Virus genome (UHGV): UHGV-1871327
Reading direction: 5' to 3' (one strand)
From: a virus
Length of the DNA stretch: 41,362 nt
The translations under genes and the position numbers were made by a program. The notes under the pieces were generated by a model that saw only the letters and a list, made by a program, of their open reading frames with translations, searched no databases and was not told where the DNA came from. Shown here one piece after another: positions 12,444 to 40,746 of this stretch. Position 1 is the stretch's first letter. Each line of letters begins with the position of its first letter.

Positions 12444-12788
12444 TTACGCCATGATTCCAGCTGCCTTCAGGTTTGCGATAATTGCATTGATTGCCACTTT
12501 ATTGGCATCCGCCAGGGTTGCCACCTTCTGAACCTCAGCCTGGGCAAATTCTGCGCCGATGGTTCCCGCGTTTTCCGCGGACACCGCTGACACTGCCGCC
12601 GACATCTTCACGCCGCCGACAACCTCTGTTGTCGCTGCCGGAATTGAACCCGATCCGGAATCCGGCCAATTATCGGCCAGTTCCTGGATCAGGTCTGCAA
12701 TCTGGTTTTCGCTTTTATCAGATACATCTTCCCCGGTGATCTTCTTGTATAGATTTTTAATCGCGTCTGAGATCATCATATCAGGCAC
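12444..12788 (-). CDS. Hypothetical head protein (decoration or head-fibre-like)
   Basis: 114 aa, Ala-rich, immediately after the major capsid gene. Confidence 0.4.
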   Translation of the reverse strand: MPDMMISDAIKNLYKKITGEDVSDKSENQIADLIQELADNWPDSGSGSIPAATTEVVGGVKMSAAVSAVSAENAGTIGAEFAQAEVQKVATLADANKVAINAIIANLKAAGIMA

Positions 12789-13749
12789 CTGCTTTCAGGA
12801 TCGCAAACGGGCATCTTTTTGATTCGTCCGTCTGCAGGCTGTTAATCGGGTTCGGGATTTCCCAGCCGAGACGCATTACAGCACGGAGGGCTACCATGTC
12901 ATTCTGCGCCAGGTTGTAGACAATCGCCTGGGTAGACGGGTCCTGGATAACCGCCTGATCCAGCAATTTAAAAGTGATATCCTGGCGAATCGCATACACC
13001 AACTGGCTAAAATCCCCAGAAATCATCAGGGCTTTGCTCTTGTCAAAAGCACCGTTACGCGGGAAGGTCATCGGAGATCCATCCAGGCTGTAGGTGGTGC
13101 CTCCCTGCATATCATTTTTAAAGATCGGATTTCCGGTGGAATCCTTCAGCCCACGCAGCTTCGCGCGCATGGAGATATCCGCCATATGCCCGCTGACGAA
13201 ATATCCGGATTCCTCCACCTTTGCGATCACGCCCGCTTCTCCCATGATGGAATCATACAGGTCATCATCAATCGTTACCGTAGCCGTGGCGGTCGTGGCA
13301 GTCGTTACAATGTCGTCCCTCCAGGTGCTGGGCTTATTGACGCCAAAGAGGATCGCAGCATCAATTACTTTTCCAAACGCTTCCTGCACCCTCGGCCGTA
13401 CCTCGCCCCAGATGTCGTAATCCGCATCATCCAGGACTGCTTCCGGAATCGGAACAATGCAGGCGATTTCCTCAGCGGTGATGATCTTTTTGTCCCACTG
13501 CATCTTTGTGGTCTGTTTCATTCCGGTATCCCCGTTGACAAAATAGGCCAGCGGCAGCATATCCAGGACCGGCATCCGGTACTGTTTGCTGGTCATGTTC
13601 GGCAGTTTCCGTCCCATAGACAATACTGCCGACTGCTCTACTGCCCCCTGGATGATCTCATTACTGTGCTGCTCCTCGATCAGGGTCTCCGCCCCGGATC
13701 TGTCAATGATATCTACTGCAAAAATCTGCAGGCTCAGTTTCAGTTTCAT
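12781..13749 (-). CDS. Major capsid protein (HK97 fold)
   Basis: 322 aa after the scaffold gene. N-terminus MKLKLSLQIFA-VDIID carries a Prp-type cleavage motif (LQxFA). Confidence 0.9.
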   Translation of the reverse strand: MKLKLSLQIFAVDIIDRSGAETLIEEQHSNEIIQGAVEQSAVLSMGRKLPNMTSKQYRMPVLDMLPLAYFVNGDTGMKQTTKMQWDKKIITAEEIACIVPIPEAVLDDADYDIWGEVRPRVQEAFGKVIDAAILFGVNKPSTWRDDIVTTATTATATVTIDDDLYDSIMGEAGVIAKVEESGYFVSGHMADISMRAKLRGLKDSTGNPIFKNDMQGGTTYSLDGSPMTFPRNGAFDKSKALMISGDFSQLVYAIRQDITFKLLDQAVIQDPSTQAIVYNLAQNDMVALRAVMRLGWEIPNPINSLQTDESKRCPFAILKAGA

Positions 13750-13764
13750 ATCGTGCTCCTTTCT

Positions 13765-14334
13765 CTATCTTCTAAATGCGTTTCGGATAGCCTGATTGAC
13801 CGTCTCATTTTCGTTCTCCCCGTGTGTGCCGGATCCGTTGCTGCCTCCCGTTACGCCGGTATCCACCCGGTATCCCCCCGCAGATGTAAACCGCGGGTTT
13901 TCCTTCAAGAATTTATCCACTGCCTTTTCAAAAGTGGTCTTATCGTCTACCATCCGGGACGCCTTAAAGATCACATAATCGTAATCTTCTTGACGGACAT
14001 TCTTTTTAGCCAGCAGTTTCTCCTGCTCATACTGGTCCACTTTTTTCTGCAGTTCTGCCGCCTTGACAGCCGGATCATTCTGCTTCTGTCGGTCTTTGAA
14101 TTCCGCGATTGCCTTATCCGCATCCTCTTTGGATAATCCCTGCTGCTTAAAATAGCCGCGCAGGACAGAATCCTCCGTCACAGACTGCTTTCCGGCCACG
14201 ATCTGGGCCAGTTTCTCATAATCAATCTGCGCCGCTGGCTGTGGATTCGGTGCGGGGTTCGGGTTGGGTTTCGGATCCGGATTGGGGGCCGGATCTTCGG
14301 CAAAAATCTGAAGGTCAATTATTCTTTTTTTCAT
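13765..14334 (-). CDS. Capsid scaffolding protein
   Basis: 189 aa, helical and charged, with a Pro-Asn repeat (PAPNPDPKPNPNPAPNPQP). N-terminus MKKRIIDLQIFA-EDP carries the same LQIFA motif as the capsid protein. Confidence 0.8.
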   Translation of the reverse strand: MKKRIIDLQIFAEDPAPNPDPKPNPNPAPNPQPAAQIDYEKLAQIVAGKQSVTEDSVLRGYFKQQGLSKEDADKAIAEFKDRQKQNDPAVKAAELQKKVDQYEQEKLLAKKNVRQEDYDYVIFKASRMVDDKTTFEKAVDKFLKENPRFTSAGGYRVDTGVTGGSNGSGTHGENENETVNQAIRNAFRR

Positions 14335-14448
14335 GTTCTCTCTCCTATCTCAACAGTTTTTCGGGTGTCTCCCGATCATTTACAGTTTTCCGTGTGTCTC
14401 ACACTACAGTTTTAGCCAGGTGTCTCCTCGTAGTTTTACGCCTTCGGG

Positions 14449-14736
14449 CTATCCAATCCGGACATGATCCGGATATCGCTCCGCAATAGCAGAAATTCCA
14501 ATAAAAAAAGAATCTATCAGCAATTTCCCTTCATCTGACAGATCCTCATAACGGATGATCCCAGTACCATCTGATATATGGTATCCAATTTTGTCCCTAG
14601 TCAGTGCATCCAAGCTGTTTACTAATGTACAAACCAGCGCAGACACCGCCGCACAGACAATATCTTTTCCGGCCGGTGCATAACCGGAATGTCCCAGGAC
14701 TGAAATGCCGTCCTTACGAACGCTGACCACTATCAT
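14449..14736 (-). CDS. prp: Prp-like cysteine protease (ribosomal-processing protease family, DUF464/YsxB-like)
   Basis: MIVVSVRKDGISVLGHSGYAPAGKDIVCAAVSALVCTLVNSL.. matches the Prp His/Cys dyad region (GH.G..G.DIVCAA.SA). The refined start is the internal M of track ORF 14449..14778. Confidence 0.8.
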   Translation of the reverse strand: MIVVSVRKDGISVLGHSGYAPAGKDIVCAAVSALVCTLVNSLDALTRDKIGYHISDGTGIIRYEDLSDEGKLLIDSFFIGISAIAERYPDHVRIG

Positions 14737-14914
14737 TCTGCGGCACCGCCTCTCCCTTTGCTGGAATGGGATCTTCAAAGATCACCTTTGCCACTCCAGC
14801 GTTTACCAATGTCTGCGCCCGCGCTTTCGTTGTCCGGAACAGCTCACCCCGTTCCTTCCGGACCTTCAGCTGTGCATCCTCATAGGTCTTTGTTACCTCA
14901 ACGATTACCGACAT
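14714..14914 (-). CDS. Hypothetical small protein (66 aa)
   Basis: RBS AGGAGG 7 nt before the ATG at 14914. MSVIVEVTKTYEDAQLKVRKERGELF.. Overlaps the prp start by 23 nt. Confidence 0.45.
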   Translation of the reverse strand: MSVIVEVTKTYEDAQLKVRKERGELFRTTKARAQTLVNAGVAKVIFEDPIPAKGEAVPQNDSGQRS

Positions 14915-14978
14915 TCTTCTGCCTCCTTTTCTTAAAAATGAGTATAAAAAACCAGCCCGAAGGCTGGCGTTTTCCGTC

Positions 14979-15329
14979 TTATACAAACGGTGCTATACTT
15001 TTTACATCTTTAAAAAATTCTTTTGCTTTGCTTAAAAAAGAATTATCTAAGAGATATTCAATCCCTTTTGGCGTAATCTGACAATGGTCTAAATTCGACA
15101 GGTGAAGGTGTACACTTCCATCAATATACCTCGACTCTTTCGCGATGATCCCCGTAATATAGCCGTCCTGCAAAAGATTTTTAAAAATATACTCGTAATA
15201 GGTTTCCGGAATGTCGTACAATGCCGCGCGTGAAATCCGTTCGGAATCAATCTCGCCGCCGCTTTTTAGCTGTTGATACAGATAGCTTAAAATCTGATAT
15301 ACAATCACATGATAATCATCTTTCGCCAT
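14979..15329 (-). CDS. YjcQ-family phage protein
   Basis: 116 aa in an AT-rich island. The ..ITPKGIEYLLDNS.. motif is reminiscent of SPbeta/skin YjcQ proteins. Confidence 0.5.
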   Translation of the reverse strand: MAKDDYHVIVYQILSYLYQQLKSGGEIDSERISRAALYDIPETYYEYIFKNLLQDGYITGIIAKESRYIDGSVHLHLSNLDHCQITPKGIEYLLDNSFLSKAKEFFKDVKSIAPFV

Positions 15330-15340
15330 GGGAAAGCCTC

Positions 15341-15568
15341 CTATTTATGCTGTTGCTCTAAAATCTCAATGGATTTAACTTCGCTTTGCGGTATTCCTAC
15401 ATAGCCCTGTTTACAAATAATACTGATACTATTCTCTCCAAAGCCTTCTCCTTCAGCTTCCTCACCGATATCCACAATATCAGAAATATAACCAATAAAT
15501 TCTCGCCCTTCTGTATCAGTAATTTTCACTTTTCCGTCTACATCCTGATAATCCCAAAGATTAATCAT
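15341..15568 (-). CDS. Hypothetical small acidic protein
   Basis: 75 aa, AT-rich, directly downstream of the MuF-like gene with an 8-nt overlap. Confidence 0.4.
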   Translation of the reverse strand: MINLWDYQDVDGKVKITDTEGREFIGYISDIVDIGEEAEGEGFGENSISIICKQGYVGIPQSEVKSIEILEQQHK

Positions 15569-17174
15569 AGTTATCCCCCTTTATCGGAACCAAATGAGTA
15601 CCACGCTTTGAATAGTGTAGTGCAGCTTTATTCGTATCATGGAACTCTCCTTTTGCGTAATACTGTCCTATCACCTTTTCACAAGTAATCAATTCAACCT
15701 GTGTCGGATCACCATTAGCGGATACTCTTATAATACCTGTCCCATGTTTATTATTGATGATTTTCTGAACTTCAGCCTCACTAATTAAAATATTGCTTTG
15801 CGGGTTTCCTCCCCGCTCTTCTCTCGCCTGACGGTATTCCATGTATTTTGGTGTCCCAAAAACATGCTTATCGTACTGTTGCTTACTTAATTTCAAAGAA
15901 TATTCTCCTGATTCTACCTTCTTTGAAATAATACTAGCGGGTAACTGTGGGATTCTTTCCCTTATTGTAGCAGATTTAGCACCTCCTGAAAAGGCTTTTG
16001 CTGGAATCCGCCCGCCGGCCATCCGGCCCAGGCCATCCATATACACCCGCTCCATCTGCTCATTCAGGCCAATTGCTTTGGAGAATCCCTGATACTCATG
16101 CAGCGTATTCAGGTACCGGCTCTGCGCCGCCCGAATCGTATCTGCATCCGCCCGGCCTTCCTTTAACTGCTTGATATTCGCCCGCTGCGCCCGCATGGTA
16201 GTCTCCAACTGACGCTGGCGCTGAGTGGCTGTGTAGCCATCATACTGCTTCCCGTGGTAGGTGCGAATTTCAGCATCCTTCTGGTGTAGCTCTTCCAGAT
16301 ACTCATCCGTATATGTTCTGACGGAAACGCCCGGAATAAATGCATAATAGCTATGCCGGCAGTTGGCGCCACATAATCCGGTCACATCACCCAGTCCGCA
16401 GACGGTTCCCAGATCCCGGTAGTGATAAACCCGTCCCTGCCAGACTGCGTGCGTCGGCCGGGCGCCGGCATGTGCGGTGACTTCGTAGTATTCCGTATTC
16501 AGGTCTTTTGCGATCTTCTCGTTCATCTTTGCGGACAGTTGCTGCACCCCTGTCAGCAGCGCTCTTCTGGCCGCCACAGGTGCCCGCGAATGATGCCCGG
16601 ATGCATAATCTACCGTCTGCAGGCCGGAAGCCGTCATTTCCTTCACGACGCGGCGCAGAACTGTATTATAATCAAACGATCCCGTTATCACATCCAGGGA
16701 CGCCCGGTCCAGGTATTTCTGGTAATATTCCGACAGTGGCGTGAACACTACTTTCCCGCTGCCCATATCTACAGAAAACCCCAGGCTTCCGGTGATATTT
16801 TTAATATCGCCCTGCGTCTGCTGCACCACGGCATTTGTCCACTGCTGCAGGGTGTCGTTTTCTTCATAGGGAATAAAATTGCTGTTGATCTGCTCATATA
16901 GCTCTTTTTTGCGGGTGTAATCTTTTTCAACCACCTGATCATACAGTTCCCAGATTTCCGCATCCGACATGCCAGTGATCCGTTTGATCTCTGATTCAAT
17001 GTACTCTGTGCTTTCGCCCAGCATCTGCATTTTGACCAGTTGATAATCCGCTGTGGACGTGATCTCCCCGGTTTTCCGTATCCGCCGTACCACATCAGTC
17101 ATAATCCGGTCCTGAAGCTCATAAAACAGTTTTTCCAGTTCCAGGGGCAGCCTGGCCAGATCATCCGGCAGCAT
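15561..17174 (-). CDS. Minor head protein (phage head morphogenesis, SPP1 gp7 / Mu F family) with a C-terminal extension
   Basis: 537 aa. ..GLCGANCRHSYYAFIPGVS.. is the MuF signature. About 150 extra C-terminal residues of unknown function. Confidence 0.85.
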   Translation of the reverse strand: MLPDDLARLPLELEKLFYELQDRIMTDVVRRIRKTGEITSTADYQLVKMQMLGESTEYIESEIKRITGMSDAEIWELYDQVVEKDYTRKKELYEQINSNFIPYEENDTLQQWTNAVVQQTQGDIKNITGSLGFSVDMGSGKVVFTPLSEYYQKYLDRASLDVITGSFDYNTVLRRVVKEMTASGLQTVDYASGHHSRAPVAARRALLTGVQQLSAKMNEKIAKDLNTEYYEVTAHAGARPTHAVWQGRVYHYRDLGTVCGLGDVTGLCGANCRHSYYAFIPGVSVRTYTDEYLEELHQKDAEIRTYHGKQYDGYTATQRQRQLETTMRAQRANIKQLKEGRADADTIRAAQSRYLNTLHEYQGFSKAIGLNEQMERVYMDGLGRMAGGRIPAKAFSGGAKSATIRERIPQLPASIISKKVESGEYSLKLSKQQYDKHVFGTPKYMEYRQAREERGGNPQSNILISEAEVQKIINNKHGTGIIRVSANGDPTQVELITCEKVIGQYYAKGEFHDTNKAALHYSKRGTHLVPIKGDNYD

Positions 17175-17177
17175 TGA

Positions 17178-18611
17178 TTACTCCTCCTCGCCATCCGGCG
17201 GCACCTCGTCGGATGTGATATGCTTTGCAGCTTCCTCCGCATCCTCCTGATACCATTTCATCCGGTAATCCAGCAGCGTCATAGCTCCCATCGCCACGTC
17301 CTGGCGGTCCTGCTGCCGCTCAGACTGTTTATCTTCGATGATGCTGTCATCAAAATCAATCGTAATTTCCGTCTCCGGATCCACGGCGTTCCCCAAGGTC
17401 TGCCCCAGCCGCAGGATGATCTGGGCCAGCTCCTTCAGCACATCCTCCAGGATAATCTCATGCTTTTTCAGTGTCCGGAACATATCACTGTTTTCGGAGA
17501 TCACCTGCGTAGCTGTAGTGACATTACCCTGCTCAAATTTATAATGCTTTGGCCCGAATCCCGTCTTTATAGACAAAATATTCAGTCCATCATTCAGGGC
17601 CTTGTTATGCTCATCCGAGCGCAGCTCCATATTGGATTCCACAATGGGCTTATCGCCCCTCAGCGTATCTTCCGGTAGCTTGTAAAATACGACATCGTTC
17701 GGGTCAAAGACCGGATCGCCCAGTTCGTTGACAGCCATCATTTCCGGGGCCACAAAGACCCGTTTTTTCCCCAGGACAAATTCATTCACATAAGAATCAT
17801 AGGTAGTATCAAGCCCCCGCAGCTGGTCTAGGCTGTTGGCAAACAGCGCCACGCCCATCGGATTGTCCTCGGATGTATTGTTGACGATGTTCAGCCGGTC
17901 GATCACAAACTGCCGGTGGGTTGACCCCGTATGGATTTTAGGCTGTAAGGATGCAAAAGGCGGAAGTTCCTTCCACTTATCCACGGATAGCTCTTTTCCA
18001 GCGCCTTCTGTACACTCTACAACATGGTTTTCAATTACATATTCCGGCTGTTCACCTGTCATTTGGATCAGATGCAGCTGGATATTCGCAAACTGCTTAC
18101 CCTTTACAGTTTTAAAAAAAGAAAAGGCGCACTCGGTAATCTCCGAGTTTTCCCAGCTTAACGGAAAAATATTTGCAGCGGAAACAAAATTGATATCTAC
18201 ACTGCCTTCACCGCCGATCAGATGCCCATCCTCCGCAATCCGGATTCCATTCAGGCATGGGATATAGGCTACTGTCCCTGTATAGGCCTTGCGCTCCTGG
18301 TAATCATTTCCGATCACCAAAAAGCGGTTCTTTTTCAAAACCGCCTGCAGGTACGCATCCGACACTGCATCCGCAGCGACAATAGAGACGCGCTCATTCA
18401 GCAGCAAGTCCGCAATATCTTCAGATGTTTTCTTTGCCATCCCCAGGCTGTACCGTTTCACCAGGATATGCTCCCGGCCATTGTAAATCCGGTACGTGTG
18501 AAACCCCTTGACGCTGTTCCGATACCAGTTTTCCCAGGTATTTATCAGCGAATAAAAAGAGCCCGGAACCGTATCATGGCCCAGGTTCTTCAGATATTTT
18601 GTTACATTCAT
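17178..18611 (-). CDS. Portal protein (SPP1 gp6-like)
   Basis: 477 aa, immediately after the terminase with a 4-nt overlap. Acidic C-terminal tail. Confidence 0.9.
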   Translation of the reverse strand: MNVTKYLKNLGHDTVPGSFYSLINTWENWYRNSVKGFHTYRIYNGREHILVKRYSLGMAKKTSEDIADLLLNERVSIVAADAVSDAYLQAVLKKNRFLVIGNDYQERKAYTGTVAYIPCLNGIRIAEDGHLIGGEGSVDINFVSAANIFPLSWENSEITECAFSFFKTVKGKQFANIQLHLIQMTGEQPEYVIENHVVECTEGAGKELSVDKWKELPPFASLQPKIHTGSTHRQFVIDRLNIVNNTSEDNPMGVALFANSLDQLRGLDTTYDSYVNEFVLGKKRVFVAPEMMAVNELGDPVFDPNDVVFYKLPEDTLRGDKPIVESNMELRSDEHNKALNDGLNILSIKTGFGPKHYKFEQGNVTTATQVISENSDMFRTLKKHEIILEDVLKELAQIILRLGQTLGNAVDPETEITIDFDDSIIEDKQSERQQDRQDVAMGAMTLLDYRMKWYQEDAEEAAKHITSDEVPPDGEEE

Positions 18612-20347
18612 TCTTTCTCACCTCGCGCACCTTCCGGCAGGAAGTATTTTAGCTTTGTCCACAACCCCATCACAGCGTACCGGATGGCGTCCATGCAGTG
18701 GTCATCTATCTTTACCGGGACTTCTTTTCCCTTGTCGATGCTGTCTTTATCGTACATATATACTCCAAACTCCCGGATAGCGTTCTCCTGCGCCCGGCTG
18801 ACCATCATGACATCATAGGTCAATATCTTCTGCACCCGGCTGATTCCCAGCGCAACGTCATTCTCTGCATCCTTGATCCGAACAAACGGGCATTTGCGCT
18901 TGATCTCCTCTGCCAGACCTTTGGCAGACGGATCCAGGTACAGATAAATAATCCCATTACCGTAGCGCTTATTGATATCCTCAGCAAACGCCTTAAACTC
19001 CTCCGCATACTCAGAGGGGCTTTTCTGGTGACCAGATTCCCGACCAGAATGGTAATACTCTCCCAGGCCACGCAGCTTTTTCTTTCCAATATCCAGGCCA
19101 AACGCCTGGAAGGTTGTTGCGTTCTGCTGGCCGTAATCCCCGCCGATCCCGATGATATACCGCCCTTTTGGCGGCTCATCCACATGCTCCGATCGAAACA
19201 TGTAATAGATCGTTTCATCGATACCGGTCTGCTCACCCAGCCATACCCAGCGATACTGCTTTAGATCTATCGCCTGCAACTGCTCTGCGGATTCGATCAG
19301 CTTACGGCCAATCCAGGACACCGGAACCTCCCGGTAATCCACATGGACATGCACCGCATCCGGACGCAGCTCCATCTTCCGGCACCAGACATTGACTGGC
19401 GCGTTTGGATTTTTTGGCGGGTTATATAGATAAAGCATCCGGAACCCTTCATCGTTTCCACGGACAAAAGTGGCCTCGATATTGGTCAGCTCCTCCTCGC
19501 CTTCGCCGGAATCAAAAAATTCTGTCAGCTCATCCAGGACAACCAGCTTGATGGGCTTGTCCTCATCAATAATACCTTTGGTATCATCAATGCTGTCTGA
19601 CCCCGAGAAGTAGATCACGTTTCCGGTTCGCCGGCATCGGATCTCCATTGGGGTAATCCCAATGTCGAAATCCGACTTTTTAAGGCCCATCCGGGTAATA
19701 GCCCGGATCATTTCCTTGTACACCGTTTTCCGGATCTTGTTGTGCCGCTTCCGCAGCACTACCACTGCGGCAGGTTCATCCCTGCAGATCGTATCAATTG
19801 CAAGGATAGCGGCAAAACTGGACTTTGTCCCGGCACGGCCGGATGTGACGATCTGATGCTCATGCTCGTCATCATCATACAGCTCCCAGAAGGATGGGAT
19901 GATCAGATCGTGTGGATCCAGATGCTCCTGTTCTTCCGGCACTGGTTCTTTCTGTCGGACTTCAGCTTCCGCTTTCTGCTGCTGAGCCCTCATAAGCTCC
20001 ACCTTTGCCTGCTGTTCCCGAAGGTCCGCATCCGTATGCCCGCTCTGGCCGGCATACTGCGCGACGAAATAGGCGGCCTTGGTATTGCCGCTCATTGCTT
20101 CCCGGATCTGGGCCGCCAGCATGGCACTCTCCAGTGTGCTGTCCAGCCCCAGAGCTTCCAGAAACGGCGTCCACTCCGGGCTGTCAATTTTGGCAGTCAG
20201 AAGCAGGTTCAGTGTACGCCGGAAGTCGGCTCTGGCCCGGCGGACTTCCCCGGATCGCTGACCGCCCTTTGAAGAGATTTCTCGTAGTTCGTTCGTGGTT
20301 CGCTTGTCAAAACCTTTATCTTTTATGTTCTCATAGTTGGCCATCAC
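18608..20347 (-). CDS. terL: Terminase large subunit (PBSX/SPP1-like) with an N-terminal extension of about 140 aa
   Basis: 579 aa. ATPase and nuclease regions from about residue 150 (..VTSGRAGTKSSF.., ..VVLDELTEF..). No separate small-terminase ORF lies between the ArpU-like gene and this one. Confidence 0.9.
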   Translation of the reverse strand: MMANYENIKDKGFDKRTTNELREISSKGGQRSGEVRRARADFRRTLNLLLTAKIDSPEWTPFLEALGLDSTLESAMLAAQIREAMSGNTKAAYFVAQYAGQSGHTDADLREQQAKVELMRAQQQKAEAEVRQKEPVPEEQEHLDPHDLIIPSFWELYDDDEHEHQIVTSGRAGTKSSFAAILAIDTICRDEPAAVVVLRKRHNKIRKTVYKEMIRAITRMGLKKSDFDIGITPMEIRCRRTGNVIYFSGSDSIDDTKGIIDEDKPIKLVVLDELTEFFDSGEGEEELTNIEATFVRGNDEGFRMLYLYNPPKNPNAPVNVWCRKMELRPDAVHVHVDYREVPVSWIGRKLIESAEQLQAIDLKQYRWVWLGEQTGIDETIYYMFRSEHVDEPPKGRYIIGIGGDYGQQNATTFQAFGLDIGKKKLRGLGEYYHSGRESGHQKSPSEYAEEFKAFAEDINKRYGNGIIYLYLDPSAKGLAEEIKRKCPFVRIKDAENDVALGISRVQKILTYDVMMVSRAQENAIREFGVYMYDKDSIDKGKEVPVKIDDHCMDAIRYAVMGLWTKLKYFLPEGARGEKE

Positions 20348-31622: not shown

Positions 31623-31845
31623 ACTTAACCTCCCTTCTATTAATTGGCACAGAAAATGTTCTACACAAGTATTGACTTTTTACCGAAAATATTCTAATAT
31701 AGAGCTACCACACAATATATAGAACATGTTCATTATCACTTGATTTACAGAAAGTTTTCTGTGCCTATGTCTTTATTATACAGAATACTTTCTATTTGTC
31801 AAGCTGTTTTTGCAGAAAGTTTTCTGTATGATAAGGAGAGGCCTC
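31623..31845. promoter_or_regulatory. Lysogeny switch region with five AGAA-N4-TTCT operator-like sites
   Basis: Sites at 31651-31662, 31721-31732, 31749-31760, 31782-31793 and 31814-31825. The sequence ACAGAAAGTTTTCTGT occurs twice. Confidence 0.5.
31672..31700 (+). promoter_or_regulatory. Sigma-A-type promoter TTGACT-17-TAATAT (rightward)
   Basis: Near-consensus -35 and -10 hexamers with 17-bp spacing, read directly from the sequence. Confidence 0.45.
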
Positions 31846-32226
31846 ATGACTTTATATGAACGTATTGAAACCCTGCGAAAAAGTAAAAATATTTCTCAGG
31901 GAAAGTTAGAAAAGGAACTTGGGTTTTCGAACGGATCAATATCTAAGTGGAAGAACAGTACCCCTACCACAGAGCGTTTACAAAAACTTGCTGATTATTT
32001 TGGAGTTACTGTGGAGTATTTGTTAACCGGAGAAGAAAAAGAACCTGCCGGCTACTATCTGAACGATGAAACCGCACAGGTTGCACAAGAAATATTTGAG
32101 AACAAAGATCTTCGCGTCCTTTTTGATGCCGCAAAAGATGCCAGTCCAGAAGATCTGAAAACCACATATGATATGCTTATGGCTCTGAAAAAGAAGGAGC
32201 GTGGAGATTATGACGAAGGATGTTAA
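31846..32226 (+). CDS. cI: CI-like XRE-family repressor
   Basis: RBS AAGGAGAGG before the ATG at 31846. MTLYERIETLRKSKNISQGKLEKELGFSNGSISKWKN.. HTH plus a C-terminal domain. Confidence 0.75.
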   Translation: MTLYERIETLRKSKNISQGKLEKELGFSNGSISKWKNSTPTTERLQKLADYFGVTVEYLLTGEEKEPAGYYLNDETAQVAQEIFENKDLRVLFDAAKDASPEDLKTTYDMLMALKKKERGDYDEGC

Positions 32227-32587
32227 TGTATTTATTAAAAATTTTCCGAATACAAAAGAAGCTGAAGCGATTACAGAAAACCCGGATGGAACATATACTA
32301 TATTTCTTAATGCTCGAATGTCATACGAACGGCAATTAGAAGCTTATCAGCATGCCCTTGAACATATACAGAATAATGACTTCCAGAAACTGGACGTCCA
32401 ACAGATCGAGGCTATTGCTCACGCCGATCAGACCACGAAAGAGCCGATTGTCACTCAGAAGAAAAAACGTCGCCGTCGTAACCGTTATAGACAGTATGAA
32501 AAACAACGTCGGGCGCTGGCTGCTTTTGGAGTTGATGCCTGGTCTCAGCATGAAGCACACTGGCTCGATCCAGATTGCAGGTTCTGA
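32210..32587 (+). CDS. ImmA/IrrE-like metallopeptidase with a variant HxxEH motif
   Basis: ..TIFLNARMSYERQLEAYQHALEHIQ.. aligns to the ImmA (I/V)F(I/L)N..E(K/R)Q.....HELGH block, but here the motif is H-A-L-E-H. Basic C-terminal tail. Confidence 0.5.
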   Translation: MTKDVNVFIKNFPNTKEAEAITENPDGTYTIFLNARMSYERQLEAYQHALEHIQNNDFQKLDVQQIEAIAHADQTTKEPIVTQKKKRRRRNRYRQYEKQRRALAAFGVDAWSQHEAHWLDPDCRF

Positions 32588-32639
32588 TTAAACCGCCGCT
32601 GGCGTTTTAATAAAAATCATTTTAAAGGGGGATATACCT

Positions 32640-33464
32640 ATGAAAAAGAAAATTGTTATCGCTTTATTGATTGGTTCCACTATTATGTCAATATCCGCAT
32701 GTGGCAAGGGTAATAGTGCTTCAACTTCTCAACAAACAACCGCCTCTATCACGGAAACTCCATCAGTAACCGAAACGCCCGAGATCACTCCCGAAAGCTT
32801 ATCCGACTCTTCTTCAGTTATGAATGATTCAAGTACTCCGGGTAACGTAATACAAGTTGATACATCAGAAGATACGGAAATAAAAGCTCCTACTGTTTTA
32901 GATTATGGATTTGTAGTCATTGAGGGTTACGATTCTTATTACATTGAATATGCCTATGAAATCAAAAACGAAAATAATGTAGATATTGAATTTCCAACAG
33001 TAAAAATAACTGCTAAAGATGACTCAGGGGCTATATTGGCTTCTGAAGAAGATGTTCGGGGTTACATTGCTGCCGGAGATACAATAGCTCAGGCTTCGCA
33101 AATCAGTTGCGATTCAATGCCCGCTTCCATAGAAATTGTAGGTGTTGTCCCTGACGATTATAATGTTGTTTCTAATAGCAGCGGACGTTCATCTGCTGAT
33201 TTTACAATCTCAAATGCATCTTTACAGGGGGATTCTGTGACCGGAGAAATTACAAATAATTCGACTCAAGATTACGACGATGGTTTTGTTGCAACAGCAA
33301 TTTTTAGAGACTCAAACGGAAACATAGTCACAGGTGCAACGGATTATTATACAAACAAAATTTCGGCAGGAGAAACCACTACATTTGAAATTAACTGTAT
33401 GTTTGATCCCTCTGAATATTCGTTTGAAACTATCACTGTTACTGCCTATGGAGAATCCTATTGA
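32640..33464 (+). CDS. Phage-encoded lipoprotein (moron)
   Basis: Signal peptide plus lipobox ..IMSISAC, Ser/Thr-rich linker, AT-rich codon usage. Confidence 0.7.
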   Translation: MKKKIVIALLIGSTIMSISACGKGNSASTSQQTTASITETPSVTETPEITPESLSDSSSVMNDSSTPGNVIQVDTSEDTEIKAPTVLDYGFVVIEGYDSYYIEYAYEIKNENNVDIEFPTVKITAKDDSGAILASEEDVRGYIAAGDTIAQASQISCDSMPASIEIVGVVPDDYNVVSNSSGRSSADFTISNASLQGDSVTGEITNNSTQDYDDGFVATAIFRDSNGNIVTGATDYYTNKISAGETTTFEINCMFDPSEYSFETITVTAYGESY

Positions 33465-34234
33465 TGAAAAAGAATATTATAATTATATTATCAAACATTC
33501 TACTAATATCCAGTTTTAACGCTTGTGCAGATAATAATAGTAGCAGTTCTGGATATACTGATGCAAATTCTGCCGTTATACACGTTTCGGATACACCAAT
33601 GACGGATAACAATTCTAATGAATCTGCTGCTGTTACTCCATATCCTACAAAAATAGAAACTGTTTCAACACCTTCTCCAACAGAAATACCTGTGCCAACC
33701 ACGCCGGAACCATCAAATACACCAATGCCAACAGTTACATCGACTCCGACCCCAGAACCAACACCAACTATTCTGGCATATGGTTCCGGAACACTAAAAG
33801 TAGGAACTGATATTCCTGAAGGAGAATACATAGTTTTCGCAACGGATGGATGGGGAGGATATTTCTCAGTTAATTCTGATGCGAACGGCGACGATATCCT
33901 ATTTAATGGCAATTTTGATTATTGTTCAATTATAACCGTATATAGCGGTGAATATCTCGAGTTATCTAGAGCGCGAGCTTATCCATTTGACCAATGGTGC
34001 TCACAAAATACAATTGATTTATCCCGTGAGGGCGCGATGTACAAAATAGGGATAACACTTTCGGCTGGTGAATATTTGCTTACTTCCACTGATGAATGGG
34101 GCGGATATTATTGTATATATCCAGATAGCCGTCAGCAAGACATTATAGCAAATGATAATTTCGAAAATCAGACTTATGTTAGTGTCTCTGATGGGCAGTA
34201 TTTAGAATTAAGTAGATGCATGATATCACAATAA
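33461..34234 (+). CDS. Phage-encoded lipoprotein with tandem ~60-aa internal repeats (moron)
   Basis: Signal peptide ..LLISSFNAC, Pro/Thr linker, then two repeats (GEY..T.GWGGY....I..N.NF.....V..G.YLELSR). Confidence 0.7.
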   Translation: MMKKNIIIILSNILLISSFNACADNNSSSSGYTDANSAVIHVSDTPMTDNNSNESAAVTPYPTKIETVSTPSPTEIPVPTTPEPSNTPMPTVTSTPTPEPTPTILAYGSGTLKVGTDIPEGEYIVFATDGWGGYFSVNSDANGDDILFNGNFDYCSIITVYSGEYLELSRARAYPFDQWCSQNTIDLSREGAMYKIGITLSAGEYLLTSTDEWGGYYCIYPDSRQQDIIANDNFENQTYVSVSDGQYLELSRCMISQ

Positions 34235-34262
34235 TTTAATACCCGCCCCACGGGGCGGGCCA
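34233..34262 (+). terminator. GC-rich hairpin after the lipoprotein genes (CCCGCCC-CACG-GGGCGGG)
   Basis: 7-bp GC stem directly after the stop codon. No clear U-tract. Confidence 0.3.
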
Positions 34263-34563
34263 CCTTGACAATATAATATTTTGGGAAAATAAAAACCGGC
34301 CCCTGCGCCAACAGGAGCCGATCAATACGCCCCGCCCGCACTGCAGGCATTCCGGTGGACGATTTTACCATACCGCCTCCGGAGACGATACAGCTTCCCA
34401 ACACCAAGGATATTGTATCATCTTCGGGGCAGCCGTGCAAGCGGAAATACCGCTGGCTGTTATTTTTGTACCCTTTTTTAACTGTATTTTATCGCGTTAA
34501 AAAATTATAGTTAAGATTTTAATTGATTTAGTCAACTAAAAATTGAGATAGGAGGATGATACG

Positions 34564-35661
34564 ATGGCAAAGCGAAAATACTCTCCCGATAAAAACGGCA
34601 TCTACAGCACGCTGGTATGGGACGGCACATACACGCCGGACGGCCGGAAGCACCGCAAGCAGCTCCGGAGCAAAAAATCCAGCGCCGATCTGGAAAAACA
34701 GGTTAGGCAGTTTCAGGCGCAGGTGGAGGCCCGGAAGATCGTGCAGGCCACGGATATGACATTTTGCGAGTACGCCGCCATCTGGCTGCAGCTCTGCAAG
34801 CCAAATGCGGAGCTGAACACTCGGAAGATGTACGAAAATGTGATCTATGTGCATTTCCAGAAGATCGCCGGCATCCGGTTAGATTCCATCTCCCGCGTTC
34901 ACCTGCTCCTGTTATTGGGCGATGTCAACCCGCCCGCGGGCGAAAAAATTTACATGACCTTCCGGCAAGTGATCCAGTCCGCGGTCCATGACAAATACAT
35001 ATCGCCGGCGGCTGCCGCTGATATTTTCGCCGGCGTCCAGCGCCCACGATCAAAGCCGACAGAAAGCCGTCCGCTGACAGAGACGGAGCGCAAAGCTGTA
35101 TTTACAGCCGCCTACAAAAAACCAATGGATCAGGCATTTGCATGGATCATATACGGATGCGGCCTGCGCCGGGAAGAAGCTATATCACTGACCGTTTTTG
35201 ATATAGACCTCAAACGCGCAAATTTGTCCGTAAAACGGGCGACAGCGTTTGATGGCAATAATCCTCAAGGCAAAGGCCCAAAGACGGCAAATGGGGCGCG
35301 TATCGTTCCCCTGCCGGGATTTCTGGCTGACTTCCTGCGGCAGTATATAAAATCCCTTTCCGGATCATTACTGTTCCATACCGCTGACGGCCGGCCCATG
35401 ACAAAATCCGCTTATGACCGGATGTGGGGGCGGATTCGGACGGTGCTGGGTGGCGCGCTGGGAGAACCCTGTACTCTGACCGCTCACAATTTCCGGCACA
35501 ACTACTGTACGATGTTGTGCTACCAGATCCCCAGTATATCCATCAAACGGATCGCGCAGCTTCTCGGTGACACGGAGCAGGTCGTCCTTAAGATCTACAA
35601 TCATATTCTGGCCGAGAAAGAGGATGCCGCCGGTGCGGTGGAACGGGCGCTGTCCATCTAA
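34564..35661 (+). CDS. int: Tyrosine integrase (phage integrase family)
   Basis: 365 aa, RBS AGGAGG. Catalytic residues present: ..GCGLRREEAISL.. (Arg), ..HNFRHNYCT.. (His-x-x-Arg), ..VLKIYNHILA.. (Tyr). Confidence 0.9.
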   Translation: MAKRKYSPDKNGIYSTLVWDGTYTPDGRKHRKQLRSKKSSADLEKQVRQFQAQVEARKIVQATDMTFCEYAAIWLQLCKPNAELNTRKMYENVIYVHFQKIAGIRLDSISRVHLLLLLGDVNPPAGEKIYMTFRQVIQSAVHDKYISPAAAADIFAGVQRPRSKPTESRPLTETERKAVFTAAYKKPMDQAFAWIIYGCGLRREEAISLTVFDIDLKRANLSVKRATAFDGNNPQGKGPKTANGARIVPLPGFLADFLRQYIKSLSGSLLFHTADGRPMTKSAYDRMWGRIRTVLGGALGEPCTLTAHNFRHNYCTMLCYQIPSISIKRIAQLLGDTEQVVLKIYNHILAEKEDAAGAVERALSI

Positions 35662-35946: not shown

Positions 35947-35990
35947 CTAGTTTTTAGCCCCGGACGCAACTGCCCGGGGCATATTTTTTA
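35947..35990 (+). terminator. Stem-loop GCCCCGG-N9-CCGGGGC followed by ATATTTTTTA
   Basis: Hairpin plus T-run on the plus strand, between attP and the endolysin gene's 3' end. Confidence 0.4.
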
Positions 35991-37130
35991 CAGCGCGATC
36001 ATATCTGCCCAGCACTTCGGTCCGATGATACCGTCCACCGGGCCGGCGCCGCCGTTCCGGTCGGTCTGGTACTTAATGACCGCCTCTTTAGTCTGATTGC
36101 CATAAGAGCGATCCAATTCACCGTTGTAATATCCGCGCGCTTTAAGGATCTCCTGCGCCAGCAAAACATCGTTTCCCTGACTGCCGTAACTGATCTGATT
36201 ACATTCAAACATATACGCTACTCCTCCTGTAATTGGTGTATTTGTATTCCCGGTTGATCCGCTTCCGCTTACCGGTTTTCGAATAATCTGTCCAACGTCA
36301 ATTTTATCCGGATTGCTGATGCCGTTATACGCTGCAAGGTCTGTAACAGATACGCCCCACATATCTGCGATCTCTGAGAGGGTATCTCCGGATTTTACAG
36401 TATACTCTGTACTGCTTCCCGGTTTCTTAATGACCTGTCCTATATTGATAACGTCCGGATTTTTGATACCGTTGTATTCCGCCAGTTCCGTCATGTTCAC
36501 GCCCATAGCAGCCGCAATCTCTGACAAAGTATCTCCTGCTTTGACAGTATAGCTGTCCCCTGATACGACAACAGATCCGTTTCCCGATGTGTTGCTGGAA
36601 CCGCCAGCATAAACGCCAGCATCCAAATTTGTAGCTGTGTGATGGCCTTCATACAGCAAAATATCTCCGGGCAGCAGGTAGGCATCGCTGGTTAAGTATT
36701 TGCTGGCTGTCAACACCTGGAAACCGGCATTTTTTAACGCGGCTCGTAAGTTTCCCGTGTAGCAGTCTGCCGATACATTCTGTAACGCCAATATTCCCAT
36801 CAAATAACCGGCAGCCTTAGTATCTCCAGCTACTCCGGAAGAGCAATCCGCTTCACACGGAATCGTGATTTGCGCCGGATCATAGTTGCTGGCCTTCAGG
36901 TGGTTCCAGTATGTACGCCTCTCATTCTGGTCATACCCGATTAAATCATTCTGTGCAGCCCTACGTGCCAGCCATGCCAACTTTTCACCAACTGACCGAT
37001 CCGGATGCCGTAATACGCAGTTCCATGGTCGGTTATACCACGATATGATCTGCCATTCTGTTCCTGTCTGATCTCCTGCTTTTCCACCAGAATATCGTCC
37101 ATTTTCGTCATGTCCGCAATTCGAAATCAT
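35988..37130 (-). CDS. Endolysin: papain-like (NlpC/P60-type) catalytic domain + 2x LysM + PG_binding_1
   Basis: DCSSGVAG (Cys) and ..PGDILLYEGHHTATNL (His) motifs. Two LysM repeats (YTVK[AS]GDTLSEIA..). C-terminus ..LLAQEILKARGYYNGELDRSYGNQTKEAVIKYQ..DGIIGPKCW is a PG-binding domain. Confidence 0.8.
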   Translation of the reverse strand: MISNCGHDENGRYSGGKAGDQTGTEWQIISWYNRPWNCVLRHPDRSVGEKLAWLARRAAQNDLIGYDQNERRTYWNHLKASNYDPAQITIPCEADCSSGVAGDTKAAGYLMGILALQNVSADCYTGNLRAALKNAGFQVLTASKYLTSDAYLLPGDILLYEGHHTATNLDAGVYAGGSSNTSGNGSVVVSGDSYTVKAGDTLSEIAAAMGVNMTELAEYNGIKNPDVINIGQVIKKPGSSTEYTVKSGDTLSEIADMWGVSVTDLAAYNGISNPDKIDVGQIIRKPVSGSGSTGNTNTPITGGVAYMFECNQISYGSQGNDVLLAQEILKARGYYNGELDRSYGNQTKEAVIKYQTDRNGGAGPVDGIIGPKCWADMIAL

Positions 37131-39756: not shown

Positions 39757-40746
39757 TTATGCCACCAGCCGCCGGAAGGACGCCTTGACCTCATCCGCTC
39801 GGACCGTCACATAAATCATCGTCGTCTCCGGCTTCGCATGGCCGGCGTATACCTGCAGCTCCTGTAGGGACATTCCCCGGGCAGATGCATCTGTCAGCAG
39901 CGTTCTCCGGAATTTGTGCGGATGGGCGTGGATGCCTGCGGCCCGCCCCAGTTTCCGCAGCATAGCCTGTACTGCTTTGGTACTCAACCGCTCATATGGC
40001 GCCCGCAGGCTGACAAACAGCGCCGGATTATCGTCCCGCCGACCCGCCAGGTATTTGCGTAGGTGGTAGGCTGCCTCTTCCGTCAGGCACACCTCCCGTT
40101 CCTTTTTGCCTTTCTGACCATATACGACCACTTCCCGGCCCACGAAATCCACATCTGACCGGTTGAGGGCCAATACCTCTCCGATACGCCCCGCTGTACT
40201 GTACAGCACTTCCATCAGTGCCAGATCTCGCTCCGTTTGCGCCAGACAGCGCAGGTGCTCCCGTTCTTCCGCCGTGTACGGCTTCCGAATCTTCTGGGGC
40301 ACTTTGACGCGCTTCAATCGGCGGGCCGGGTTGCGGTTGATATAACCCTCATCGTTCAGCCAGCCGAAAAAGCCACTGATATACCGCCGCAGTGTATCCA
40401 GATAGGACAGCGATACGCCCCGCTGCTCCTGGTACATCGCCAGGTAGTAACGCAGGTCATTGGTCGTAATGTCCGGCAGCCGCTTATTGATGGCCTGCAT
40501 CAGCATCCGGATACAACGACCGTATCCTTCCAGCGTCCCCTCGCTGCAATTCTCCAGCCGCTTACTCGCCAGATACATCCGCAGGGCCTTTTCCCAGTGT
40601 CGTTCTGACACCACCAGCTCCGTCCGCTCCTCCTGCAGCGTCAGGCCGTGCGTCTTGATCGCCAGCACATTTTCCAGCTTCCGAAGCTGCTCCGGCGCCA
40701 GATCCTCTTGCATGGCAGCCAGTATTTCCGCTATCAGTTTTTCCAT
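39757..40746 (-). CDS. Tyrosine recombinase (XerC/D- or Rci-like) bracketed by inverted sites R2 and R3
   Basis: 329 aa. N-terminal SAM-like domain. Catalytic ..AGRIGEVLAL.. (Arg), ..HPHKFRRT.. (His-x-x-Arg), ..YAGHAKPETTMIYVTV (His and Tyr). Confidence 0.85.
   Translation of the reverse strand: MEKLIAEILAAMQEDLAPEQLRKLENVLAIKTHGLTLQEERTELVVSERHWEKALRMYLASKRLENCSEGTLEGYGRCIRMLMQAINKRLPDITTNDLRYYLAMYQEQRGVSLSYLDTLRRYISGFFGWLNDEGYINRNPARRLKRVKVPQKIRKPYTAEEREHLRCLAQTERDLALMEVLYSTAGRIGEVLALNRSDVDFVGREVVVYGQKGKKEREVCLTEEAAYHLRKYLAGRRDDNPALFVSLRAPYERLSTKAVQAMLRKLGRAAGIHAHPHKFRRTLLTDASARGMSLQELQVYAGHAKPETTMIYVTVRADEVKASFRRLVA

Follow-up and report, generated by a model that had tools for sequence, protein, structure and literature searches.

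A phage-encoded Prp-family protease that probably cleaves the L27-like tags of its own scaffold and capsid proteins in virus genome UHGV-1871327

Introduction

Which enzyme processes the head proteins of the phage represented by the virus genome UHGV-1871327? In this DNA of 41,362 nucleotides (nt), which we call the window and by which we mean the whole stretch that was analysed, a gene for a small cysteine protease of the Prp family lies next to the genes of a head scaffolding protein and of a major capsid protein, and both of these proteins begin with a short tag that resembles the pro-peptide of ribosomal protein L27. In the staphylococcal phage 80alpha, as a sequence-only reading of this DNA had stated and as has indeed been published, the Prp of the host cuts capsid and scaffold between Phe and Ala (PMC5744158). 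Based on family profiles, alignments and comparative genomics, we consider it probable that in the window the Prp of the phage itself would cut the tags of its own scaffold and capsid, filling the role of a prohead protease. The three genes were found where the sequence-only reading had placed them, all of them on the minus strand. The features involved are listed below (aa, amino acids; SaPrp, the Prp of Staphylococcus aureus):

14449-14736, minus strand: Prp homologue, 95 aa (PF04327, PHROG 4478)
14689..14691, minus strand: codon of the catalytic His16 (SaPrp His22), from the alignment to 4peo/7kld
14653..14655, minus strand: codon of the catalytic Cys28 (SaPrp Cys34), which aligns to the Cys replaced by Ser in 7jvs (C34S)
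13765-14334, minus strand: head scaffolding protein, 189 aa (PHROG 2303, E 3.6e-31)
14302..14334, minus strand: scaffold tag MKKRIIDLQIF, with a cut predicted from the sequence after F11 and before A12
12781-13749, minus strand: HK97-fold major capsid protein, 322 aa (PF05065 E 6e-36, TIGR01554, PHROG 10)
13720..13749, minus strand: capsid tag MKLKLSLQIF, with a cut predicted from the sequence after F10 and before A11

The Prp gene and its catalytic residues

To place the protease in a family, hidden Markov model (HMM) profiles were run against the open reading frames (ORFs) of the window. The profile PF04327 (Peptidase_Prp) matched the ORF at 14449-14778 with 75.4 bits (cut-off 27) and E 4e-21 over profile positions 13-89 of 90, which bears out the earlier assignment to the Prp family of Cys proteases. 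This mechanical ORF has 109 aa and reaches a TTG at 14778. However, the true start is most likely the ATG at 14736, which gives a product of 95 aa, because the alignment to PHROG 4478 ('peptidase', E 9.6e-27) begins at residue 15 of the 109-aa ORF, that is, at this Met, and because a gene of 95 aa was called independently on L085, a metagenome contig from ENA.

The sequence-only reading had staked its assignment on a conserved His and Cys in the product of 14449..14736, and both residues were found: when the window protein GHSGYAPAGKDIVCAAVSA is aligned to S. aureus Prp GHADHGEYGHDIVCAGASA, His16 and Cys28 correspond to H22 and C34. In the same way G15, D25 and S32 align with G21, D31 and S38 of SaPrp, and in the alignment to PDB structures the loop between G15 and D25 has 11 residues, as in the Prps that cleave L27. 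Asp31, Ser38 and the flexible loop of 11 residues from Gly21 to Asp31 are among the defining features of the L27-cleaving enzymes (PMC9405229). The window Prp matched the PDB entries 2g0i, 4peo/7kld, 7jvs and 2idl with E values from 6e-9 to 1.5e-5 over approximately 84 residues. The two residues of the dyad are separated by 12 positions in a G-H...D-I-V-C-A context, and G15, H16, C28 and A29 do not vary in an alignment with SaPrp and orf13 of the Streptococcus phage Cp-1 among its members.

Family membership does not make this gene a typical bacterial prp. With the models of the chromosomal Prp equivalogs (NCBIfam, PRK14553) the best score was 43.8 bits, and the cut-offs of these models are between 122 and 225. 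Because of this low score, and because the gene lies between phage head genes and not in an rplU-prp-rpmA operon, the comparison of sequences indicates that the window Prp is a phage paralogue within the Prp family rather than a typical host gene that was captured. It is located immediately upstream of the scaffold gene, with a gap of 114 nt, and not two genes upstream of it as had been proposed.

On the 5' side of the Prp gene, an ORF of 66 aa overlaps the Prp start by 23 nt. Its ATG is preceded by AAAGGAGG, a strong Shine-Dalgarno sequence, and the gene was also called on contig L085. This ORF is probably co-transcribed with Prp, and it could be a partner or a regulator of the protease. In addition, there is a YjcQ-family gene within the head module, and a hairpin at 14951-14968 stands between this gene and the 66-aa ORF; judging from its position, the hairpin may mark the start of a transcription unit containing Prp, scaffold and capsid.

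L27-like tags on scaffold and capsid

The N-terminal sequences of the scaffold, MKKRIIDLQIFAEDP, and of the capsid protein, MKLKLSLQIFAVDI, contain the predicted sites MKKRIIDLQIF'AEDP and MKLKLSLQIF'AVDI, where the apostrophe marks the bond to be cut. The corresponding tag-site peptides of the window phage are KRIIDLQIFAEDP and KLKLSLQIFAVDI, and an example of a host L27 peptide is MLNMNLQFFAHKK. The published consensus for L27 is MLxx(D/N)LQ(F/L)F'A(S/H)KK, and the 80alpha sites are ...NLQFF'ADQS and ...NLQHF'ASNN (PMC9405229). The tags of the window fit the L27 consensus at P5, P4, P3, P1 and P1', with a Ser at P5 of the capsid that is Asn in variants, and carry Ile at P2 instead of the consensus residues. 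Their lengths, 11 aa in the scaffold and 10 aa in the capsid, compare with the 9-15 residues, approximately, of an L27-type pro-peptide; the figure of 11 residues previously given for the capsid tag has to be corrected, since a cut at F'A removes 10 residues from this protein and 11 from the scaffold.

Both ATG codons are preceded by good Shine-Dalgarno sequences, AGGAGAG in the case of the scaffold. A six-frame scan of the window for the N-terminal pattern [LIVMF]Q.[FYW][AGSTD] returned only two real genes with a tag, those of scaffold and capsid, the two substrates named by the sequence-only reading. At the DNA level, the two tag regions have only 11 nt in common (CAGATTTTTGC) and their Leu and Ala codons differ; therefore, the tags did not arise by duplication of DNA. 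Among full-length metagenome variants of 90% identity, the cores DLQIF'A and LQIF'A are fixed, except for one scaffold with F'S, while the flanks vary. One of the capsid variants, MKLKLNLQIFA, is nearer to L27 than the MKLKLSLQIFA of the window.

A search for prohead proteases of the HK97 (S78), ClpP (S14), U35 and U9 types gave no hit, either in the head module or among the remaining window genes that were scanned. Thus, of the earlier proposal that the phage brings its own Prp in place of a dedicated prohead protease, one part stands, namely that no other protease was found among the scanned genes, and the substitution itself can be put forward as a likely reading of the gene content.

Association of Prp and tags in related loci

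The comparative survey comprised 80 IMG/VR loci selected by alignment to Prp and 80 prophage loci selected by the capsid. Relatives of Prp are present in at least 562 IMG/VR contigs, and the prophage loci belong mostly to Lachnospiraceae (Mediterraneibacter, Blautia, Enterocloster and Dorea). Out of 143 loci with a match to the Prp HMM, 135 present at least two downstream ORFs (of at least 150 aa) with an N-terminal L-x-x-F/Y tag. With a strict definition, the tag was found in 250 of the 281 ORFs that are the first two downstream, versus 10 of 468 upstream ORFs (a background of 2%). The upstream ORFs served as the sole control; ORFs located later downstream are contaminated by true capsids displaced by inserted genes.

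These numbers bear on the possibility that the resemblance of the tags to L27 is a chance match, or the product of wrong start codons. The motif has just five residues, and start codons are not proven by a list of ORFs alone. However, a Shine-Dalgarno sequence stands before both ATGs, independent gene calls agree with them, and the tag occurs in more than 130 related loci, including some with non-homologous capsids, against the low background observed in upstream genes. We give practically no weight to this explanation, and an artefact of chance or of start codons is ruled out by the survey of loci.

A second comparison was restricted to capsid homologues from prophages for which 2.5 kb or more of upstream sequence was available. 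A tagged capsid was accompanied by Prp in 53 loci, to which two loci missed by the regular expression can be added (one with FQLFE and one with a non-ATG start), and neither Prp nor tag was found in 12. The association gives 1.5e-11 in Fisher's test, a value that carries no correction for phylogeny. The untagged capsids begin with MATIDRSALSG or MASIDRS, which corresponds to the predicted mature end of the window capsid (A-VDIIDRSGAE).

This last finding is also relevant to another explanation, according to which the tags would stay on the proteins as signals for assembly or chaperone docking, and the Prp homologue would bind them without cutting or would have another target. In 80alpha the N-terminal peptide of the scaffold is required for assembly and its cleavage is not, and a role in folding or with chaperones has been suggested by the authors of that work (PMC5744158). 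Nevertheless, the catalytic His and Cys and the supporting residues are strictly conserved across the phage Prps, and the homologues without tag begin precisely where the mature protein is predicted to begin, which fits a tag that is routinely removed. Permanent retention of the tags seems to us very improbable.

The tags co-occur with Prp and are also transferred together with it. The capsids closest to that of the window (74-77% identity) are paired with Prps that are only 31-49% identical to the window Prp. Conversely, the closest Prps (53-63%) are paired with capsids and scaffolds that show no BLASTP similarity to those of the window and are still tagged. One example is the Dorea phage DO134P1, with capsid and scaffold lacking BLASTP similarity to the window proteins, and with the tags MANLQLFA and ...LGLQVFT. 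Since tags persist on non-homologous capsids and scaffolds near similar Prps, the tag goes with the protease and not with the lineage of the capsid. Comparative genomics thus gives strong indirect support to a functional coupling of Prp and tags, as far as coupling can be read from sequences.

In a subset of the IMG/VR loci (L038, L040, L041, L046, L054, L078 and others), an ORF of 400-520 aa starting with MLKMVDGTGIIGVDMICPLG... is present between Prp and the tagged scaffold, approximately 290 nt after Prp.

Variation of the cleavage site

In the window the P1' residue is Ala, and in relatives it is often Glu, Asp or Thr. Scaffold and capsid share the same residue in 92 of 135 loci. Furthermore, tags that end in F'E, F'D or F'T occur in many related prophages and in the phage Fontainebleau (loci L088-L146, e.g. 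L088, L095, L091 and L112, and locus L002), and P3 of these tags is often Arg, His or Lys (e.g. LRMFE). The type of site follows the clade of the protease: Prps of the F77/Y19/Y52 type, to which the window enzyme belongs, are found with F'A, and those of the W77/W63 and M77 types with F'T, F'D and F'E; the Prps of L088 and of Fontainebleau are examples with W77. Positions 19, 52, 63 and 77 of Prp thus track the class of P1', and these classes coincide with deep clades of Prp; SaPrp has a His at the equivalent of position 19 and yet cuts F'A. The variation is suggestive of a co-evolving specificity, a pattern confounded by phylogeny that should be taken as a lead only.

A broader interpretation of these data, which we hold tentatively and regard as somewhat doubtful, is that Prp and the two tags form a portable cassette of protease and substrates with a private specificity. 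As the protease is passed on along with its substrates, its recognition site could drift freely away from the L27 site of the host. The cassette would be insulated from the species-specific host Prp, could become attached to unrelated genes for capsid and scaffold and could move between host genera, and the window would represent an ancestral-like state still compatible with L27. In a stronger version, the window enzyme would also process the L27 precursor of the host.

Phage or host enzyme

According to the mechanism that we consider probable, Prp, with its His16/Cys28 dyad, would be made together with scaffold and capsid, and both of these would carry at the N-terminus, when newly made, a short tag that imitates the L27 pro-peptide of Firmicutes. 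The phage Prp would recognise L-Q-I-F at P4-P1 and cut between Phe and Ala, removing 11 residues from the scaffold, which would then start with AEDPAP..., and 10 from the capsid, which would start with AVDIIDRSG.... The trimming would occur during or just before the assembly of the procapsid. Since no conventional prohead protease was found among the scanned genes, Prp would be the enzyme that fills this role in the head module. With the protease on the phage genome, the pair of protease and tag would be self-sufficient and could pass from host to host and from one capsid gene to an unrelated one. It has been reported that Prps are specific for the L27 of their own species and that the C. difficile Prp fails on the S. 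aureus peptide (PMC9405229), and this would plausibly explain why a phage should bring a matched enzyme of its own. The cleavage itself, its attribution to the phage enzyme, the exact bond and the timing are what we infer from these observations.

Several points weigh against this proposal. The Ile at P2 of the window differs from the Phe or Leu of L27. The capsids without Prp are also those with the lowest identity (56-69%), and the presence/absence statistic may therefore reflect only a few independent events. In L137, a metagenome-assembled genome of an uncultured Lachnospiraceae, scaffold (..RLQTFA) and capsid (..DLQRFA) are tagged and there is no Prp within 6 kb upstream; this locus may rely on the host Prp like 80alpha, or may have its Prp elsewhere. 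In the literature we found no experimental cleavage results for the window phage or for close relatives. Cleavage of either protein is dispensable for the viability of 80alpha (PMC5744158) and, by analogy, the cut of the tags may be non-essential in the window phage. Finally, the sites of the window are canonical F'A and its hosts are likely Lachnospiraceae, and Firmicutes with a long L27 all encode prp (PMC12324487); because the sites are canonical and the likely hosts have a Prp of their own, the host enzyme could do the cleavage, as in 80alpha.

If the chromosomal Prp of the host did cut the tags, the phage copy would be redundant, a booster of dosage, or an auxiliary gene aimed at the L27 precursors of the host to sustain ribosome maturation. 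In addition to the L27-like sites of the window, the tagged locus without a nearby Prp and the presence of the enzyme in those Firmicutes, the complete dependence of 80alpha on host Prp (PMC5744158) speaks for this explanation. However, in 135 of 143 loci Prp is part of the head module and is followed directly by its putative substrates, and capsid homologues lose the tag and Prp together. The Glu, Asp or Thr at P1' and the Arg, His or Lys at P3 of many relatives are never seen in L27, and from the structure of SaPrp its P1' pocket seems to be small (PMC9405229). Moreover, the window Prp reaches only 44 bits against equivalog cut-offs of 122-225, and the species-specificity reported for Prps (PMC9405229) also speaks against this explanation. 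Taking both sides together, we regard processing by the host Prp as unlikely, and cleavage by the phage Prp as the probable course.

Genomic context and type of phage

The rest of the head region, analysed by profile scans of the window ORFs, contains the following features, and all the head-region genes are on the minus strand:

18608-20347, minus strand: large terminase (PF04466)
17178-18611, minus strand: SPP1-type portal (PF05133)
15561-17174, minus strand: MuF-like minor capsid protein 2 with a C-terminal Ntox50 domain (PF06152, PF15542)
15341-15568, minus strand: protein of 75 aa (PHROG 1865)
14979-15329, minus strand: YjcQ-family protein (PF09639)
14951-14968, minus strand: terminator-like hairpin followed by a T-run, from a consensus scan only
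14714-14914, minus strand: ORF of 66 aa, 5' of Prp, without a Pfam, PHROG or NCBIfam match

The order of the module is that of 80alpha and SPP1: large terminase, SPP1-type portal, a MuF/gp7-like protein, a separate scaffold and an HK97-fold capsid (PF04466, PF05133, PF06152, PHROG 2303 and PF05065, respectively). The capsid has no delta domain, since its alignment to TIGR01554 starts at model position 114. The remaining part of the window encodes head-tail connector and tail proteins, a replication module, an integrase and an endolysin; the window phage is a temperate siphophage or a prophage. Judging from its prophage relatives, the host is likely a member of the Lachnospiraceae; sequences identical to the window capsid were found in metagenome contigs only. 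A megablast search of GenBank phages with the head module returned nothing meaningful.

Two tyrosine recombinase genes are present in this 41-kb element, one at 34564-35661 on the plus strand (PHROG 1 integrase) and the other at 39757-40746 on the minus strand (PF00589 and PF13495), for which a look-up gave no recorded sequence. Between them, at 35988-37130, lies the endolysin gene, with ELLD, LysM and PG_binding_1 domains. The region from 35.9 to 41.4 kb, with the endolysin and the second recombinase, is phage DNA and not a host flank. No terminal repeat was found in the window. This gene order suggests a permuted or wrapped phage genome and not a prophage with host flanks.

Other features of the window deserve mention. 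The MuF-like protein carries an Ntox50 'bacterial toxin 50' domain (PF15542, E 1.2e-17) at residues 430-530, and we take this combination to resemble the MuF-anchored polymorphic toxins of temperate phages. The large terminase has 579 aa, and residues 2-132, an N-terminal extension of approximately 130 aa, match a separate family, phrog_2412, with no assigned function (E 1.1e-33). No gene for a separate small terminase was seen next to the large one, and the extension may be a fused small-terminase-like domain. An island of low GC content at 32000-34300 on the plus strand (GC 0.40 versus approximately 0.52) presents a reversed strand bias and adjoins the integrase and a gene similar to HTH repressors (31810-32226). 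Its ORFs at 32640-33464 and 33461-34234 had no Pfam match, and the island may be a moron or defence cargo.

Significance

The combination of a phage-encoded Prp with a tagged scaffold and capsid is common in phages of Clostridia and of lactic acid bacteria, and has been little described. In 80alpha a ribosomal protease is borrowed from the host; the present results extend this picture to numerous gut and dairy phages with a protease gene of their own. From this follows a rule, applicable from the sequence only, for predicting the mature N-termini of capsid and scaffold in phages bearing Prp. The loci also provide a natural series of matched variants of protease and site, useful for mapping the specificity of Prp, an enzyme that is pursued as a target for narrow-spectrum antibiotics. 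Furthermore, the database labels 'ribosomal protein' or 'hypothetical' of phage Prp genes can be corrected. For the window itself the gain is modest, a well-supported functional annotation with no new mechanism. The patterns across the family are somewhat more interesting: untagged homologues that start at the mature end, the mobility of the cassette, and P1' residues other than Ala that track Prp clades.

Comparison with known systems

The novelty that the sequence-only reading implied was overstated, considering that the protein has its own PHROG family, is labelled 'peptidase' in RefSeq phages, has the many IMG/VR relatives counted above, and that Cp-1 is represented in MEROPS C108 (PMC12445089). 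Homologues of the window Prp are found in 24 GenBank phage records, where they are annotated as 'peptidase', as 'ribosomal protein', as hypothetical or not at all. We found no literature linking a phage-encoded Prp to L27-like tags; key primary papers lie outside this search, and an earlier description is possible. The preprints of the Dokland laboratory from 2025-2026 mention host Prp only (including PMC12324487).

The window Prp shares with S. aureus Prp (MEROPS C108, PDB 4PEO/7KLD) the family, the His/Cys dyad and the loop of 11 residues. However, its identity to SaPrp is only approximately 30%, and its scores fall well short of the cut-offs of the NCBIfam equivalogs. The resemblance to 80alpha comprises the type of tag, ...NLQxF'A, on both the scaffold (gp46) and the capsid (gp47), the cut between Phe and Ala, which in the window is predicted, and a head module of the SPP1 kind, in which the minor capsid protein is of the MuF type and a conventional prohead protease is missing. 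The main difference is that the protease of 80alpha is an essential host enzyme encoded between rplU and rpmA, whereas in the window it is the phage that has the protease gene, placed immediately before the genes of the substrates. Also, P2 is Ile in the window, in contrast to Phe or Leu in L27 and Phe or His in 80alpha (PMC9405229).

Homologues belonging to PHROG 4478, 32-53% identical to the window Prp, are found in the head module of Dorea DO134P1, Acutalibacter Fontainebleau, Lactococcus PLgT-1 and TP712, Brochothrix BL3, Enterococcus phiFL3A/B, Oenococcus Krappator and Latilactobacillus phages. Scaffold and capsid are tagged in all three that were inspected: DO134P1 (MANLQLFA and LGLQVFT), Fontainebleau (NLQLFD on both) and PLgT-1 (NLQLFA and NLQRFA). 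Unlike the window, some of these phages use F'D or F'T, and the bodies of capsid and scaffold can be unrelated.

The MEROPS family C108 (clan CR) includes the protease of Streptococcus phage Cp-1; maturation depends on this enzyme, which takes 48 residues off the N-terminus of the major head protein (PMC12445089). As in the window, the Prp-family member of Cp-1 is encoded by the phage, and the G-H and C-A motifs are kept in orf13. The work on this protease is reportedly that of Martin, Lopez and Garcia in 1998. In contrast to the window phage, Cp-1 is a podophage of the phi29 type; the match of its orf13 to PF04327 is weak (18.5 bits, below the cut-off of 27), the cut is at ...ARINH'ATVP by our own count on the sequence, which is not L27-like, and the Cp-1 scaffold is untagged.

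Finally, the role predicted for the window Prp is similar to that of the conventional prohead proteases (HK97 gp4/S78, lambda C/S49, ClpP-like S14 and T4 gp21/U9) in the N-terminal processing of capsid and scaffold as the head matures and in being encoded between portal and capsid. Unlike these enzymes, which are Ser/His proteases similar to those of herpesviruses, the window protein is a Cys/His Prp of approximately 95 aa. Large delta or scaffold domains are the usual targets of the conventional enzymes, which cut them off or break them down within the prohead, whereas in the window the predicted loss is a tag of approximately 10 residues.

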